A stretch of 64,000 nucleotides of DNA from contig JBAXHO010000001.1 of the NCBI GenBank assembly GCA_037138855.1, positions 6,105 through 70,104 of the forward strand, in the 5' to 3' direction. Shown piece by piece: positions 1 to 36,127 of the stretch. This DNA comes from a bacterium. Lineage in GTDB: Bacteria > Patescibacteriota > Dojkabacteria > B142 > OLB20. The notes under the pieces were generated by a model. It did not search any database and had not been told where the DNA came from. It saw only the letters and a program-made list of their open reading frames with translations. A program made the position numbers and the translations under genes. Each line of letters starts with the position of its first letter. Positions within the stretch are counted from its first letter, which is position 1.

Positions 1-3000
1 GTGGTGTCCTGGTGAAGTTGCTGAATATGGTTATACATTTCCTGATCAGCAGGAAGTAAGTTGGGTAGTTGGTAGCTCGTAGCTCGTAGCTGAGATTCGA
101 GATTCGAGATTCGCAATTCGAAGTCTTCCAGATTCATGAGAATAAATTTCCCGGCATTCCAGAGTTTGTTGCAGAAATTACGGTTGTTGGCGATTTTTTC
201 TTCATATAGTCGGTAATTTTGACCAACAGAATTTCCCAGGATAAAACTGAGGCGGAGGGCATCTGTCCCGTATTTCTGCATCATTTCAAAGGGGTCAATC
301 CCATTTCCTTTAGATTTACTCATTTTAACGCCATTTTTATCAAGCACTAGTCCATGGAGGTAGACATCTTTGAAAGGAGCTATTTTTTCACCTGGTTGTT
401 GATCCCAGGGTTTGCCGTTTGACTTCTGTAGTTCTTTGGCAGCGCGGTAAGGATTGAGTAACATCATTCTAGTCACCCAGAAAAGCAAGATATCCCAACC
501 TGTTTCCATTACTTGGGTCGGGTAGAAGTCCTGATAGTCATTGACACCACTTGCTTTGAGCGTCAAATATGGCCATTGACCGGAAGAAAACCAGGTGTCG
601 AGGACGTCGGAATCTTGATTCCAGATCGGTGACCGGTTATCGGTGACCGGTAATCGGAAGGGAAAGGAATTGATCTCGAGATTGTTGATTTCGTGGGCGC
701 GACTTGCGGCGGGAGTTTCGCCACCAAGTTCTCTTTTAAATACCCGAATTACACCGGAATGGGTAACAATGAGTATTTTTTTGTGGGCATATTTTTGTTT
801 AATGTCAGCGATGAATTCTTGGACACGGGATTCAACTTCTTGGATGCTTTCTCCTCCCGGAATAGTTTCCTGGTAGTTGGCGTCGTTGGCTGAGGTGAAT
901 TCAGGATATTTTAGCTCAGCTTCCTGCCAGAGTAGTCCTTCTAAAATGCCGAAGTTACGTTCTTTCAGTCGATCATCAGTAATTACTTCCAAGCCAAGCT
1001 CTTTGGCAATGATTGTCGCGGTAGTATAGGTTCTTTTTAACGGTGAACTGATAATTAAATCATAGCCGGTATTTTCAGACTTTAGTTTTTTAGCCAATAA
1101 TCCAGTCTGAGTGACACCATTGGCATTGATTTGAGAATCATTTTGACCTGAAATTCTGCCAATATGATTATTATCTGTTTCCGCATGGCGAATCACGTCA
1201 AGAGTTTCGCTTTGAGAATTGGGATTATCGAGTCCCACATAGAGCAGATCTTGATAATCTGAGTTTTCTGAAATGGTTTTACCGGCAATTTTTTCGCGAA
1301 CTACACCATTTTCATCAATAAATTGTTCATGAGTGCCTTTGTACCAAACTGGAATCCGATAACCCCACCAGAGTTGTCTGGTGATACACCAGTCTTCCGG
1401 CGTATTCATCCAGTCAAAATAAGTTTTCTTTTTGCCTTCAGGCATAATTTCAGTAAAACCTTGTTCGACAAGTTCTTTTGCTTTGGCTTTCAAGGGTTTA
1501 GTATCGACAAACCACTGATGAGAAACTAGTGGCTCGATTGGATGTTTGCAACGTTCACAGATTCTGATGCGGTTTTCATATGCAGTATCAATGGAAATCA
1601 GCATCCCGGCAGTTTTCATATCTTCAAGCATTGTCTTTCTAGCTTCATCGGCTTTCATGCCATTATATTTACCAGCCAAATGGTTCATGGTACCATCGAA
1701 ATTGATTACTTGTTTCTCCGGCATACATTCAGTTTGATGACGTTTAGCAATATCCCAGTCTTCCATGGCATGAGCAGGAGTAATTTTGAGTGATCCTGTT
1801 CCAAATTCAGAATCCACTGCTTGATCGCCAATAATATTTAGTTTTGTTGTACTTGTAATAGTTCGAACTGCAAAGCTTTTACCGAGGAATTCCTGATAAC
1901 GCCAGTCATCAGGATCCACTGCAATAGCTGTATCGCCAAAGATCGTTTCCGGTCGGACAGTTCCGATGATAAAGCCATTATTGTAAAATTTATCTTCAGG
2001 ATAGTCAGCAAATTTAATGATATGTACTCCGGCAAAATGCTTACAATAATGCAGGAAAAGTTTTTCTAGTTCATCCTGCAACTCGTTAAGATTTTTTTCA
2101 GGATTAATTACAATTAATTTGTAATCTTTATCGAAACGCATCATGATCGCTTCAGCTTTTCCAGTTACCTTATCACCCTTTTTGAGATTATCAAATCCCA
2201 AAATCCAGGCATCTAGATCTTCACCATCATTGGGATTTTTTTCACCAGCAATATAGCCATAATAATCAAAGGGCCATTGATATTCTTCACCATTTTTTGT
2301 GGTGAATTTATCTCCTTTGCTTCTTTCGACAGTAACTTCAATTTCTTTTCCGGCAAATTTATTTTTTAGGCTAACTGCATATGGTTCGGCATCGATTAAA
2401 CCATATTTAAAATAGATAAATGGGCTTTGACTGTCTTTAAATTCAGTGTCAATATCCGCAAGAGCAGAGGAACAGCGGGGACACCAGTTAATGATTCGCT
2501 TCCCACGATAAATCAGACCATCTTCGTACATCAGGATAAAGGCCTTCAGTACTTCATCGACAATTTTTGGATCCAGTGTAAATAATTCTCTCTCAAAATC
2601 TGCTGATAAGCCGATTTTTTTCTCCTGATTACGCGCTGTAGCAGAATTGTCCATACAGAATTTATAGCAGGCTTTATAGAAAGTTTCTCTCCCTAAGTCT
2701 TTTTTACTTTTACCTTTTTTCGCCAGTTCCTTTTCAAAAACAACTTCTGTCTGAATACCAGCATGATCTTTGCCAGGTAGTAGCAATACTTTTTTACCTA
2801 ACATTCTCTGATATCTACCCATTAGATCCTGGTAAGCATAACCGGACATGTGTCCGAGATGAAGGTTGCCATTGGCATTGGGTGGGGGCAGGGTAATCAT
2901 GAAACTTTCCCGCTCAGGCAGGTGAGCGCTCGAAAGTTCTCGATCGCTTGTGTATTCCGGAGCGTAAAAATTATGATCCAGCCAAAATTTCAGCATCTCT

Positions 3001-3041
3001 GCTTCAGTTTCGGATGGTTTGTAGGGTCCTTTGGGGAGCAT
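1..3041 (-). CDS. valS: Valyl-tRNA synthetase; start codon at 3041-3039, the ORF runs off the window start (3' end of the gene lies beyond position 1)
   Basis: Translating the minus strand from ATG at 3041 gives MLPKGPYK...PPPNANGNLHLGH (HIGH motif), ...INWCPRCSSALADID, ...GTGSLKITPAHAMEDWDIAKRH, ...HGLVLDKNGVKMSKSKGNGIDP (KMSKS), ...DALRL..., NKLWNAGKFILMN. The frame stays open to position 1. It is absent from the ORF track only because there is no stop inside the window. Confidence 0.9.
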   Translation of the reverse strand, partial: MLPKGPYKPSETEAEMLKFWLDHNFYAPEYTSDRELSSAHLPERESFMITLPPPNANGNLHLGHMSGYAYQDLMGRYQRMLGKKVLLLPGKDHAGIQTEVVFEKELAKKGKSKKDLGRETFYKACYKFCMDNSATARNQEKKIGLSADFERELFTLDPKIVDEVLKAFILMYEDGLIYRGKRIINWCPRCSSALADIDTEFKDSQSPFIYFKYGLIDAEPYAVSLKNKFAGKEIEVTVERSKGDKFTTKNGEEYQWPFDYYGYIAGEKNPNDGEDLDAWILGFDNLKKGDKVTGKAEAIMMRFDKDYKLIVINPEKNLNELQDELEKLFLHYCKHFAGVHIIKFADYPEDKFYNNGFIIGTVRPETIFGDTAIAVDPDDWRYQEFLGKSFAVRTITSTTKLNIIGDQAVDSEFGTGSLKITPAHAMEDWDIAKRHQTECMPEKQVINFDGTMNHLAGKYNGMKADEARKTMLEDMKTAGMLISIDTAYENRIRICERCKHPIEPLVSHQWFVDTKPLKAKAKELVEQGFTEIMPEGKKKTYFDWMNTPEDWCITRQLWWGYRIPVWYKGTHEQFIDENGVVREKIAGKTISENSDYQDLLYVGLDNPNSQSETLDVIRHAETDNNHIGRISGQNDSQINANGVTQTGLLAKKLKSENTGYDLIISSPLKRTYTTATIIAKELGLEVITDDRLKERNFGILEGLLWQEAELKYPEFTSANDANYQETIPGGESIQEVESRVQEFIADIKQKYAHKKILIVTHSGVIRVFKRELGGETPAASRAHEINNLEINSFPFRLPVTDNRSPIWNQDSDVLDTWFSSGQWPYLTLKASGVNDYQDFYPTQVMETGWDILLFWVTRMMLLNPYRAAKELQKSNGKPWDQQPGEKIAPFKDVYLHGLVLDKNGVKMSKSKGNGIDPFEMMQKYGTDALRLSFILGNSVGQNYRLYEEKIANNRNFCNKLWNAGKFILMNLEDFELRISNLESQLRATSYQLPNLLPADQEMYNHIQQLHQDT

Positions 3042-3347
3042 AATAAAATCATAAAAGATAAAAGATAGAAGTTAAAAGATAAAAGAATAATACCTTAATA
3101 ATTATTGACTTTTAACTATTAGCTTTTAGCTATTAACTTTTTCCACAAAAAATCCCCACACAACTATCAATCTTGATAATCATATAGGGACCTAGTAAAT
3201 CGGTGGTTCCACCCTAATTCCAATTAAATTTAATTAACTGGCTCTTGAATAGCGATAACGGGCTGCCCGGAAGAATTAGCATTAAGGATTTTCTTCAGCT
3301 CCTGCGGTGACGTCTTTCGCAGTCTAGTGCTTTTAGTTATTAAATTG
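3042..3347 (-). promoter_or_regulatory. Candidate T-box riboswitch leader of valS with an extended -10 promoter (TGTGTTATAAT at 3365-3355, minus strand)
   Basis: Minus-strand sequence GGAATTAGGGTGGAACCACCG (plus 3215-3195) matches the T-box consensus AAUUAGGGUGGNACCGCG. It is followed by an imperfect hairpin and GGGGAUUUUUUGUGG (terminator) about 100 nt upstream of the valS ATG. Leader length is ~300 nt. The specifier loop was not resolved. Confidence 0.55.
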
Positions 3348-3390
3348 TGCTTGAATTATAACACAATCAGAAAAATGCAGTGGTAAAGAA

Positions 3391-3993
3391 TTAGTCTTTC
3401 CTGAAATAAAAAACATGCCAGTCACCTGTTGTTGATTGGGCATTGGTGTATTTAATTAATTGGAAATTATTTTTGTCAGCAAGTGCCAGGATTTGTTCTT
3501 TTGAATAATAGTAGAATGTCAGTGGTAAATTTCGAAATTCAGCAGTTCTGACAACTTTTTTTCCCTGGCCATTTTTTACACAGATGAATAATATTCCATT
3601 CTTTTTGAGAAGCGTATAAAAATCCTGGATTACTTTGGCGACTTGATCAAAATCTAAATGTACTAATGAACTCATGGCCCAGATCGCATTAAAGGAATTT
3701 GGCTTGAAAGATAAAGCATTGAGGTCAGCTATTTCAAATAGCGCTTTAGGTGCATATTTTCGAGCAGCAGTAATCATGTTTTCACTCAGATCAATTCCTG
3801 TTACTTGAAATCCATTTTCGGTAAAAACCTTACTATCGCGTCCAAATCCACATCCTGCATCCAAAATGTGAGCTGACGGTTGCAATAGCCCCATAAATTC
3901 TTCAAGTAAATGCGAAAAACCTTTACTAGATACTCTTGCCTTAAAATATTCTGCAGTAATTTTATTATATGTATCAATTGTCTGATCTTCCAT
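3391..3993 (-). CDS. Class I SAM-dependent methyltransferase
   Basis: 200 aa ORF with motif ILDAGCGFGRDS (Rossmann motif I) and a downstream acidic motif. Confidence 0.8.
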   Translation of the reverse strand: MEDQTIDTYNKITAEYFKARVSSKGFSHLLEEFMGLLQPSAHILDAGCGFGRDSKVFTENGFQVTGIDLSENMITAARKYAPKALFEIADLNALSFKPNSFNAIWAMSSLVHLDFDQVAKVIQDFYTLLKKNGILFICVKNGQGKKVVRTAEFRNLPLTFYYYSKEQILALADKNNFQLIKYTNAQSTTGDWHVFYFRKD

Positions 3994-23689: not shown

Positions 23690-25129
23690 ATGCTGAAGGT
23701 TTACAACACACTTACCAAGCAAAAACAGGAGTTTATTCCCATCGAACCTAAAAAGGTAATGTTTTATCATTGTGGTCCGACAGTTTACTGGGTACAACAT
23801 ATCGGGAATCTTCGCGGTATGATCTGTGCTGATTTAATTCGTCGCTCTTTGATTTACATGGGTTATGAAGTTAAATTTGTTCGTAATTATACCGACGTTG
23901 GGCATCTGACTGGTGATAACATCGGAGATGCAGATACTGGTGAAGATCGCATGGAAAAAGCTGCGAAACGAGAAGGATTGGATCCAGACAAAATTGCCAA
24001 TAAATATATTGAACTTTTTAATATTGACTTGGAGAAGTTGAATATTCTGCAGCCAACTTATACACCAAGGGCGACAGAATTTATCCAGCAAATGATAGAT
24101 TTAGTGCAGGTTTTACTGGATAAAGGTTTTGCCTACGCCACACCTAAGGCAATTTATTTCGATGTTACTAAAAAAGCAGACTACAATAAATTAAATCGGC
24201 AAAATCTTGAGGAAAATCGTCAAGGTTCTGGCACCGGAGATGTAAGTGATCCAGCTAAAAAGCATCCCTTTGATTTTGCTTTATGGTTTTTCAAAACTGG
24301 AGTGCATAGTAATGCTTTGCAAACCTGGGAGTCACCGTTTAGTTCAACTGAAGTTGAAAAGGGACGAGGGTTTCCTGGCTGGCATATCGAGTGTAGTGCA
24401 ATGTCCAGCTCTCTCTTAGCCGATACGATTGATTTACATATGGGTGGTATTGAGCATATTGCGATTCATCACACCAATGAAATTGCTCAAAGCGAATCTG
24501 CCAGTGGCAAGGAATTTGTCCATTACTGGCTGCACAACGAGCATTTAACTGTAGATGATCAGAAGATGTCAAAGTCACTTGGTAATGTATATGCAGTTTC
24601 CGATATTGAAGCTAAGGGTTATGATCCACTTGCCTTACGTTATTTTTTCTTGCAAGCGCATTACCGTTCTAAGCAAAACTTCACCTGGGAAGCACTGGAT
24701 GCAGCCAAGCAAGCCTTTTCCAAACTGAAAAAAGAGGTTCTAAACTGGAAAAAAGCTGAAAGTAGCTCAAATACAGCCGAAAATGAGGTGGAAACCCTAA
24801 AAAATGAGTTTCTAAGGGCTCTGGAAGATGATTTTAATATTCCTCAAGCACTTGCAGTGGTTTGGAAAACCAATAATTTTAAAGCCCTGTCTGATCAGGA
24901 AAAATTAAATTTGGTTTTGGACTTTGATAAAGTATTAGGTTTGAAATTAAGTGAAGTGAAGGAAAATCAGGTAGAGATACCAGAAGCTGTGAAAAAATTA
25001 CTTGAGGAAAGACAACTTGCCAGGGTAAATAAAGACTGGGCAAAATCAGATCAAATTCGTGAACAGATTAAAAAGGAATTCGGGATGTTGGTTGAGGATA
25101 GTGGTGAAGGACAGAAGATTATCGGTTAA
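23690..25129 (+). CDS. cysS: Cysteinyl-tRNA synthetase
   Basis: Class I motifs HCGPTVY...HIGN (HIGH-like) and KMSKSLGN; 479 aa. Confidence 0.9.
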   Translation: MLKVYNTLTKQKQEFIPIEPKKVMFYHCGPTVYWVQHIGNLRGMICADLIRRSLIYMGYEVKFVRNYTDVGHLTGDNIGDADTGEDRMEKAAKREGLDPDKIANKYIELFNIDLEKLNILQPTYTPRATEFIQQMIDLVQVLLDKGFAYATPKAIYFDVTKKADYNKLNRQNLEENRQGSGTGDVSDPAKKHPFDFALWFFKTGVHSNALQTWESPFSSTEVEKGRGFPGWHIECSAMSSSLLADTIDLHMGGIEHIAIHHTNEIAQSESASGKEFVHYWLHNEHLTVDDQKMSKSLGNVYAVSDIEAKGYDPLALRYFFLQAHYRSKQNFTWEALDAAKQAFSKLKKEVLNWKKAESSSNTAENEVETLKNEFLRALEDDFNIPQALAVVWKTNNFKALSDQEKLNLVLDFDKVLGLKLSEVKENQVEIPEAVKKLLEERQLARVNKDWAKSDQIREQIKKEFGMLVEDSGEGQKIIG

Positions 25130-35625: not shown

Positions 35626-36113
35626 GGGGATGTATGGCTTCGACAGGGAATATTACTGGTTTTTGGCAAGCCGAGGTTTTTGGATACGGAGTCCTCGTAA
35701 AACAAACTGGTCCTCCGGTTATTTTGACCGGGCCGCATAATAAGCGTCAAAACCAAATTTCAAGATTTCGTTGCTGGCGTACAGGGCACAGTTGCAGCTA
35801 TCGCTGCTTCCTTTGCTCCTGCATTAGCTTTCAACGGAGTTGTTGCCTAAACTGGAGTTTCTCCAGGGATAAGCGCGAAAGCGCGGTAACCTTCTAGTGT
35901 TCTTCTCTCCTGATGGGAGGCACTAGGAGAAACATAGTCAGGATACAAGACTTAGCAATAGCATTCTGCTAAGTCCCACGCAAAATGTCTGCTGGCGGGA
36001 ATTGGTTTTAGCTTACTTCTATCAACTTCTCGTCTAAAAATCCAAGTAAGCTACGCTTGTACACTGAGAATCGGTAAGTTTTCTGGACGCGGGTTCGATC
36101 CCCGCCATCTCCA
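35626..36113 (+). ncRNA. ssrA: tmRNA (ssrA), one-piece, CCA not encoded; unusually long (~488 nt)
   Basis: 5' end GGGGAUGUAUGGCUUCGACAGGG (acceptor plus tRNA-like D region). PK1-like GCCGAGG...CCUCGUAAAAC. Ala-rich tag frame ...GTVAAIAASFAPALAFNGVVA followed by UAA. 3' end GGACGCGGGUUCGAUCCCCGCCAUCUCCA (T-arm plus acceptor). 5' GGGGAUG pairs with 3' CAUCUCC. Confidence 0.7.
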
Positions 36114-36127
36114 TAAATTTTGCCTGC

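Follow-up and report, generated by a model that had tools for sequence, protein, structure and literature searches.

A probable valine-specific T-box riboswitch with an ultrashort Stem I and an intrinsic terminator upstream of valS

The stretch of DNA analyzed here, referred to as the window, is 64 kb long and carries a valyl-tRNA synthetase gene, valS, at its very beginning. The gene lies on the minus strand with its ATG at position 3041 and exits the window at the window's start, leaving 1013 of its 1120 amino acids visible (1..3041). Its start codon is fixed by the N-terminus MLPKGPY, which is kept in all close homologues, and the encoded protein (ValRS) is 100% identical to a 1120-amino-acid MAG protein, P0001. 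The nearest named homologues of this ValRS belong to Candidatus Dojkabacteria/WS6, a candidate-phylum lineage of the candidate phyla radiation (CPR)/Patescibacteria. The upstream neighbor of valS is a methyltransferase ORF (3993..3391), and 349 nt separate its stop (3391) from the valS ATG. Read in the direction of transcription, this intergenic region holds the extended -10 sequence TGTTATAAT, the elements of a T-box, a terminator hairpin followed by UUUUUUGU, and an AU-rich spacer of about 100 nt (Table 1).

Table 1. Features of the valS upstream region, in window coordinates.
Feature	Position	Strand	Description
Extended -10 promoter TGTTATAAT	3355..3363	-	Read directly; 314 nt from the valS ATG
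valS leader (5′ UTR), whole	3042..3348	-	Intergenic, methyltransferase ORF stop to valS ATG
Stem I, ultrashort	3298..3330	-	K-turn-like base, 5-bp helix CUGCG/CGCAG and 11-nt apical loop AAAGACGUCAC
Specifier GUC (Val), 3311..3309, with conserved 3′ purine A3308	3308..3311	-	Invariant in relatives, upstream of valS
Stem II	3270..3296	-	GAAGAA/UUCUUC with a 15-nt top; 5′ strand purine-rich
Stem IIA CGGG/CCCG, F-box CCCGUUA and predicted IIB pseudoknot AGC/GCU	3251..3269	-	
Linker AAGAG (RRRNG), 3246..3242, and Stem III CCAGUUAA/UUAAUUGG, 3241..3220, then AA, 3219..3218	3220..3246	-	
Antiterminator (discriminator)	3185..3216	-	A1 UAGGG/CCCUA; 7-nt bulge UGGAACC; A2 ACCGA/UAGGU
Intrinsic terminator	3145..3193	-	17-20 bp hairpin, 3193..3150, and UUUUUUGU U-run, 3152..3145
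AU-rich spacer, terminator to start codon	3042..3144	-	Carries UAUCUUUU repeats; no Shine-Dalgarno

The anatomy of the leader was drawn as a hand structure and checked base by base. Stem I stands on a K-turn-like base, GC-ACUA-GA ... GA-GC (3330..3323 and 3301..3298), whose bulge is 4 nt rather than 3 nt; at the sequence level this provides the K-turn (GA motif) of T-box leaders, and the motif is seen in most relatives. The apical loop above it divides as AAAGAC-GUC-AC. Stem II, read by homology to the related leader L082, contains GAA/UUC and a GAAAA/GCUAA internal loop and is without the canonical AGUA(GAA) S-turn signature. Beyond it, the pairing of AGC with GCU in the IIB pseudoknot is predicted, and Stem III is a helix of 8 bp. 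Both the role of the F-box in T-boxes (PMC7583486) and the RRRNG-Stem III-AA motif (PMC7778990) have been described previously.

The antiterminator reads UAGGG-UGGAACC-ACCGA...UAGGU-CCCUA, with the T-box sequence AGGGUGGNACCNCG in its 7-nt bulge and UGGA at 3211..3208. Its predicted free energy is -7.6 kcal/mol versus -23.2 kcal/mol for the terminator, whose core, UCCCUAUAUGAUUAUCA/UGAUAGUUGUGUGGGGA, contains many G-U pairs. The terminator is far more stable than expected by chance (z = -5.6; 0 of 200 shuffles equally stable), and the whole leader gives a folding z of -2.7. The 5′ arm of the terminator takes in CCCUA, the 3′ strand of A1, which renders terminator and antiterminator mutually exclusive. 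Transcription is predicted to start at about 3348. No good -35 element could be recognized upstream of TGTTATAAT, and for this reason the promoter went unlisted in a simple two-hexamer promoter/terminator scan, which did not list the valS terminator either.

An initial sequence-only reading of the window had proposed a T-box leader on valS, and most of its particulars were borne out. The T-box motif, GGAAUUAGGGUGGAACCACCG (3221..3201, minus strand), had been placed about 155 nt upstream of the valS ATG and was measured at 160 nt from its 3′ end and 180 nt from its 5′ end. The TGnTATAAT promoter, put at roughly 300 nt from the start codon, corresponds to TGTTATAAT, and the imperfect terminator hairpin with its U-run is the G-U-rich hairpin that ends in UUUUUUGU. 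The reading would have been abandoned had no antiterminator/terminator alternative been foldable at the GGGUGG element; both fold, and they compete for the adjoining CCCUA. It had also called for a Stem I with a GUN codon as specifier, and both are present, the codon being GUC followed by A3308. Its remark that T-box regulation would stand out if the organism were CPR-like applies as well, given the Dojkabacteria/WS6 affinity of the ValRS. What did not hold was the description of the geometry as canonical. The distal half of Stem I, with the AG bulge, the distal loop and the elbow platform (IDTM) that mark class I T-boxes, is missing, leaving the specifier in the apical loop.

Taken alone, the T-box motif is only weakly unusual: its core, AGGGTGGNACCNC (11 specified bases), occurs a single time in the 64 kb, at 3215..3203, where 0.19 occurrences would be expected with up to one mismatch. 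The significance of the T-box call therefore comes from a covariance-model match and not from the motif by itself. The sequence-only reading had suggested a search with the Rfam T-box model, RF00230, and the reverse complement of 3336..3183 matched this model over its full length (positions 1-219) with 56.4 bits, corresponding to E = 1.2e-11 on 601 nt and 1.3e-9 on both strands of the whole window. The match falls short of the RF00230 gathering score of 93 bits, which is why default Rfam annotation misses the valS leader; a scan of the window at gathering thresholds reported a tmRNA alone. The alignment shows where the bits were lost. Where the model has positions 21-95 (74 positions, the upper two thirds of Stem I), the leader has 9 nt, and this Stem I deletion, common to all of the approximately 30 leaders described below, accounts for the low score. 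The tmRNA gene itself (35626..36116, plus strand) is 491 nt long against a 374-position model, with large insertions of 25, 70 and about 45 nt, and encodes the tag peptide AAIAASFAPALAFNGVVA; a similar tmRNA occurs near valS in L028.

No further T-box was detected when the window was scanned with Rfam (E up to 0.1) and with R1, a covariance model derived from the window's leader alone, with its structure assigned by hand. This includes cysS (23690..25129, plus strand), which has a 257-nt intergenic region upstream. Two close relatives likewise showed no T-box across the 40 kb surrounding their valS, where cysS and a further class I synthetase gene are located. In the sequence seen, T-box control is confined to valS.

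For comparison, 80 CPR valS loci (one genome per species) and 80 valS loci from metagenomes were collected, with 3 more obtained by exact-protein look-up, and were searched with R1, with Rfam at E-value thresholds, and by motif search and reading. An attempt to align the raw leader segments with MAFFT and RNAalifold gave a poor alignment with 8 pairs only, and R1 was used in its place. Homologous leaders located before valS, or before an operon ending in valS, were found by R1 at about 20 loci, and motif search with manual inspection brought the number to about 31, all such counts being lower bounds. The carriers include Dojkabacteria/WS6 (L001, L007 and L015), two weak or truncated cases labelled Doudnabacteria (L014 and L056), and many Patescibacteria MAGs. 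L014 scored poorly with R1 (E = 0.017), gave no Rfam hit below E = 0.1 and was accepted on manual reading only. Fourteen relatives gave an Rfam T-box hit, at 34-52 bits and thus all below the gathering score, and the same Stem I deletion is seen in the seven of their alignments that were read.

In several loci, other genes intervene between the leader and valS. An ORF6N-family gene lies between the Val T-box and valS in L001 (1918-2460), and the same family occurs just downstream of valS in L163 (7500-8042). A 281-amino-acid ORF and a NUDIX-like ORF occupy this position in L015 (WS6 OLB20; 1217-2523), as does a 103-amino-acid ORF in L014 (2161-2472). In L092 (897-1445) and L088 (296-841 and 859-1404), free-standing genes of the PF00300 family stand between the terminator and valS, which would place them within the same T-box-controlled operon. 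The ValRS of the window holds a domain of this very family, His_Phos_1 (PF00300), as an insertion at amino acids 616-793 (window 660..1196, minus strand; E 5.9e-47), and the free-standing phosphatase-family genes are 28% identical to it (E 9e-14). The insertion point varies in content among homologous ValRS proteins, with PF00300, PF06821, HAD, GNAT and ASCH domains all occurring there. These arrangements suggest a functional link between the PF00300 phosphatase and ValRS.

Support for the structure comes from covariation. Across 11 diverse sequences, 93% of pair cells hold standard pairs, and both sides have changed at 30 of 35 pairs; the alignment was fitted to the model and hence leans towards the structure. 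In control analyses, none of 500 shuffles scored as high, and sliding the partner by 1-3 columns reduced pairing to 32-51%. RNAalifold recovered the same helices independently from the same alignment, with 28 of 33 pairs compensatory. By element, compensatory changes occur in relatives at each of the five helix pairs and the two K-turn base pairs of Stem I, at every helix pair of Stem II, at all eight pairs of Stem III, and in antiterminator helices A1 and A2. The four pairs of Stem IIA are invariant in 11 of 11 sequences, and the IIB pairing shows one compensatory case (GGC/GCC in L007) and one mismatch (L002).

Conservation extends to the decoding, promoter and terminator elements. GUC and the purine after it (A, or G in three) are invariant in all 28 leaders whose 5′ part is complete, and GUC always lies on the 3′ side of the Stem I loop, next to the 3′ strand of a helix of 4-8 bp. 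The Stem I hairpin is of the window's type, with GUC in a simple apical loop, in 26 of the 28; in the other two, L082 and L084, the loop bears an extra, class IV-like mini-hairpin. In 23 of 28 leaders, an extended -10 resembling TGnTAnAAT precedes the specifier by 30-66 nt, and in 27 of 31 a hairpin of -11 to -35 kcal/mol ends at a U-run 45-142 nt after UGGN. In most of these, the terminator's 5′ arm begins with the 3′ strand of A1. Three or four relatives (L003, L018, L010 and L082) show no clear U-run. Separately, insertions of about 90-120 nt atop helix A2 were seen in L010 (2239-2400) and L084 (510-650); the former is followed by a hairpin and a weak U-run only, the latter by a terminator with a clear U-run. 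Large A2 insertions have been described for translational T-boxes (PMC7583486).

The region between Stem I and the antiterminator exists in more than one form. The GAAAA/GNNAA variant of Stem II is common to the window, L082, L084, L088, L092 and L028, while in most other relatives Stem II reads GAAGAA ... AGUAGAA. In L033 (2300-2340), L034 and the clade L048/L063/L141/L148/L152/L160, a plain hairpin replaces the Stem IIA/B pseudoknot and F-box (examples are AUCCAAUUAGUUGGAU and CCCUA...UAGGG), and these same leaders read UGGUAAC in place of UGGUACC. An engineered pseudoknot-to-hairpin substitution was reported to keep much of tRNA binding (PMC7583486), and the plain hairpins of this group are its natural counterpart.

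T-boxes have been divided into four classes: class I, with a long Stem I and a Stem II (e.g., Bacillus subtilis tyrS); class II, with a long Stem I and no Stem II (e.g., glyQS); class III, with a short Stem I, a specifier in the apical loop and a needed Stem II (e.g., Nocardia farcinica ileS); and class IV, with an intermediate Stem I (e.g., Actinomyces odontolyticus ileS) (PMC10482949). The class III examples cited in PMC7583486 include ileS of N. farcinica and Mycobacterium tuberculosis (Sherwood et al. 2015; structures 6UFM and 6UFG). The leader in the window resembles class III in its short Stem I without the interdigitated T-loop platform, in the specifier placed in the apical loop and followed by a purine, in the presence of a Stem II, a predicted IIA/B pseudoknot that includes the F-box, a Stem III and a T-box discriminator, and in having C as the third codon base. 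It departs from class III in carrying an intrinsic terminator with a U-run, where actinobacterial ileS has a Shine-Dalgarno (SD) sequestrator, and in pairing Val with valS in the CPR (Dojkabacteria) rather than Ile with ileS in Actinobacteria. Its apical loop is also longer, at 11 nt (6-11 nt in the family) versus 5-6 nt in published class III members (PMC10482949), and its Stem II loop, GAAAA/GCUAA, is not the canonical S-turn (GAA/AGUA). In class III, Stem II with its S-turn and the IIA/B pseudoknot are both required for tRNA binding (PMC10482949).

With class I T-boxes of the Firmicutes (the B. subtilis tyrS type), the leader shares the order of elements, from the K-turn to the AGGGUGGNACC T-box in the antiterminator, as well as a terminator and U-run that compete with the antiterminator and an aminoacyl-tRNA synthetase gene controlled at transcription. 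Unlike class I, it lacks the distal two thirds of Stem I, in which the AG bulge and distal loop dock the tRNA elbow, and its specifier occupies a terminal loop rather than an internal one. Class IV, as represented by A. odontolyticus ileS (PMC10482949), is approached by L082 and L084, which have an intermediate Stem I, a specifier at the junction with a small extra hairpin, and no elbow platform (the U-run is weak in L082 and clear in L084), whereas the window's own leader has the simpler class III form. Like the class II glyQS leader, it would be a minimal natural T-box acting by transcription termination, but the two are reduced in opposite ways: in glyQS the long Stem I is retained and Stem II and IIA/B are lost, and in the valS leader the reverse is true. 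From its sequence, the leader is best described as a class III decoding module joined to a class I-type terminator, Val-specific and located in the CPR, and hence as a variant of a well-known mechanism.

The leader matches the T-box family in sequence and structure; its helices covary, its specifier is invariant, its terminator and antiterminator compete, and its promoter and terminator are conserved in relatives. The sequence-only proposal of a T-box leader on valS is thus supported by the covariance match, the GUC specifier and the competing helices. On this evidence, the leader is most probably a T-box riboswitch specific for valine, with valS controlled through transcription attenuation.

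One alternative is that the leader is a decaying or non-functional relic that no longer senses tRNA and now serves as a constitutive attenuator or simply as a 5′ UTR. Its Rfam score beneath the gathering score, its UGGA unlike the family's UGGU, its lack of a canonical S-turn in Stem II, and the lack of a leader in the nearest ValRS clades could all be read this way. Indeed, L081, L161/L162 and L163, which represent those clades, have no T-box leader, implying that T-box control is dispensable in near relatives. However, all helices are intact, and the window's variants are shared by the subfamily L082, L084, L088, L092 and L028 and are not private lesions. The specifier, the purine, the F-box, RRRNG-Stem III-AA and the terminator have all been kept, the low Rfam score is wholly due to the Stem I deletion found in about 30 members, and an unregulated terminator of -23 kcal/mol before an essential single-copy gene would be costly. 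A relic is accordingly unlikely. As to gene order in the leaderless clades, a ROK-family gene lies upstream in L081 (1480-1510) and L161 (9162-10001)/L162, its stop overlapping the valS ATG, and valS follows a 154-nt divergent intergenic region in L163 (3896-4050). Synteny with the window is kept in that a phosphoribosyltransferase gene lies upstream on the opposite strand; in the window, the methyltransferase and the T-box leader replace ROK.

Another alternative is a translational T-box, acting alone or together with termination, as in class III T-boxes of Actinobacteria. Ribosomes would then be kept from their loading region by an alternative helix or by the AU-rich hairpin downstream. Architectures of classes III and IV "mostly regulate translation initiation" (PMC10482949), the relatives without a clear U-run would fit such control, and the spacer can be folded on paper into a long imperfect hairpin (3137..3050) that ends 6 nt before the AUG. 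Against this, the switch helix ends in UUUUUUGU some 100 nt before the AUG, and 27 of 31 relatives likewise carry a U-run after a terminator hairpin. The spacer hairpin, considered as a second regulatory element (3144..3042), was rejected, being no more stable than shuffled sequence (z = -0.75). Nor is there an SD to control: GGAGG/GAGG-like sequences are absent from the 30 nt upstream of valS and of all 35 ORFs of at least 180 amino acids that were checked in the window, leaving an actinobacterial-type SD sequestrator nothing to hide before valS. The regions upstream of these ORFs are AU-rich, and, to judge from them, translation in the host organism seems to be initiated without an SD. Translational control is thus quite improbable, and since the leader also contains no Val-rich leader peptide of the kind used in Proteobacteria-type attenuation, transcription attenuation at the terminator and its U-run is the best-supported mode. 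Pyrimidine-rich repeats of the UAUCUUUU type were observed just upstream of the valS start in several leaders (the window, L092 and L033), and these may be an SD-independent ribosome-loading tract.

That the T-box reads another tRNA through a different triplet of AAAGACGUCAC, namely GAC (Asp), ACG (Thr) or CGU (Arg), is extremely unlikely: these triplets do occur in the window's 11-nt loop and UGGA would suit a tRNA with discriminator U, but GUC alone is conserved across the family, with the preceding bases free to vary (ACGUC, UAGUC, UUGUC, UCGUC, GUGUC and CUGUC) and no other codon scoring above 17 of 28 when judged by the same geometry, its position is the canonical one, with the conserved purine and then the helix's 3′ strand coming next, and the regulated gene is valS in every case.

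For the valine-specific T-box acting by attenuation, we infer tRNA binding, the role of Stem II and the regulatory outcome from sequence, and the following course of events would be expected. Transcription would begin just downstream of TGTTATAAT, and the nascent leader would fold into the K-turn and a 5-bp Stem I displaying GUC-A, followed by Stem II, the IIA/B pseudoknot and Stem III. The anticodon of tRNA-Val(GAC) would then pair with GUC. With Stem I lacking an elbow-binding platform, the tRNA is presumably held by the groove between Stem I and Stem II, as in the class III T-boxes of actinobacterial ileS. If the tRNA were uncharged, its free 3′ NCCA would pair with UGGA of the T-box bulge, stabilizing the weak antiterminator and permitting readthrough into valS. 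If the tRNA were charged, or if none were bound, the more stable terminator would form and transcription would stop at the U-run. The specifier and the terminator are about 160 nt apart. The usual energetics of T-boxes are of this kind, the default state being "off" unless an uncharged tRNA props up the antiterminator. The third codon base of GUC also fits, as T-boxes containing Stem II prefer tRNAs with G34 (PMC7583486).

Several observations sit less easily with this mechanism. The variable T-box base is A (UGGA) in the window and in L007, C in L088, and U in 27 of 31 relatives. No tRNA genes were found in the 64-kb window, and scans of all loci yielded a single CPR tRNA-Val(GAC), in the unrelated Harrisonbacteria locus L065; its discriminator, A73, fits the UGGU of the 27 relatives and not UGGA. 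By analogy with that tRNA, an A-A mismatch between UGGA and the discriminator of tRNA-Val is possible in the window, in which case either the host tRNA-Val differs at the discriminator or the leader works with a mismatch. Furthermore, the S-turn signature absent from the window's Stem II is essential in class III T-boxes (PMC7583486), and transcriptional T-boxes have generally been held to need a long Stem I for fast tRNA capture (PMC7583486, PMC11297988).

A broader proposal is that the CPR carry a lineage of valS T-boxes, previously unannotated, in which an elbow-less class III/IV decoding module is combined with an intrinsic terminator. We regard the chances of this as roughly even; the lineage is taken to cover Dojkabacteria and, on weaker cases, loci labelled Doudnabacteria and other Patescibacteria. 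A 2008 census placed T-boxes in Firmicutes, Actinobacteria, Chloroflexi, Deinococcus-Thermus and two deltaproteobacteria (PMC2494555). TBDB ran its short-Stem-I model only on Actinobacteria and on sequences that the Rfam model had picked up beforehand (PMC7778990). A literature search for T-box together with candidate phyla radiation, Patescibacteria, Saccharibacteria or Dojkabacteria returned no report, a result that covers one library and is not proof of novelty. Given leaders below the gathering score and the scope of the TBDB model, routine annotation would miss a regulator of an essential gene, and such an omission matters in CPR organisms, which have very few known regulators.

The leaders also bear on how T-box architecture relates to mode of control. 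A long Stem I with elbow contact has been linked to kinetic (transcriptional) control and a short Stem I to thermodynamic (translational) control (PMC7583486, PMC11297988). Approximately 27 natural leaders that join a short Stem I to a terminator offer a direct test of that link and, if the present reading is true, docking of the tRNA elbow would not be generally required for co-transcriptional tRNA sensing. For synthetic biology, the leader is predicted to be a compact (about 190 nt) transcriptional tRNA sensor. The CPR are placed beside Chloroflexota in recent rooted trees. If true, the reach of T-box control into the CPR would fit a Terrabacteria-wide origin of the mechanism, and organisms without SD sequences, for which SD sequestration is unavailable, would have coupled the short-Stem-I design to termination.
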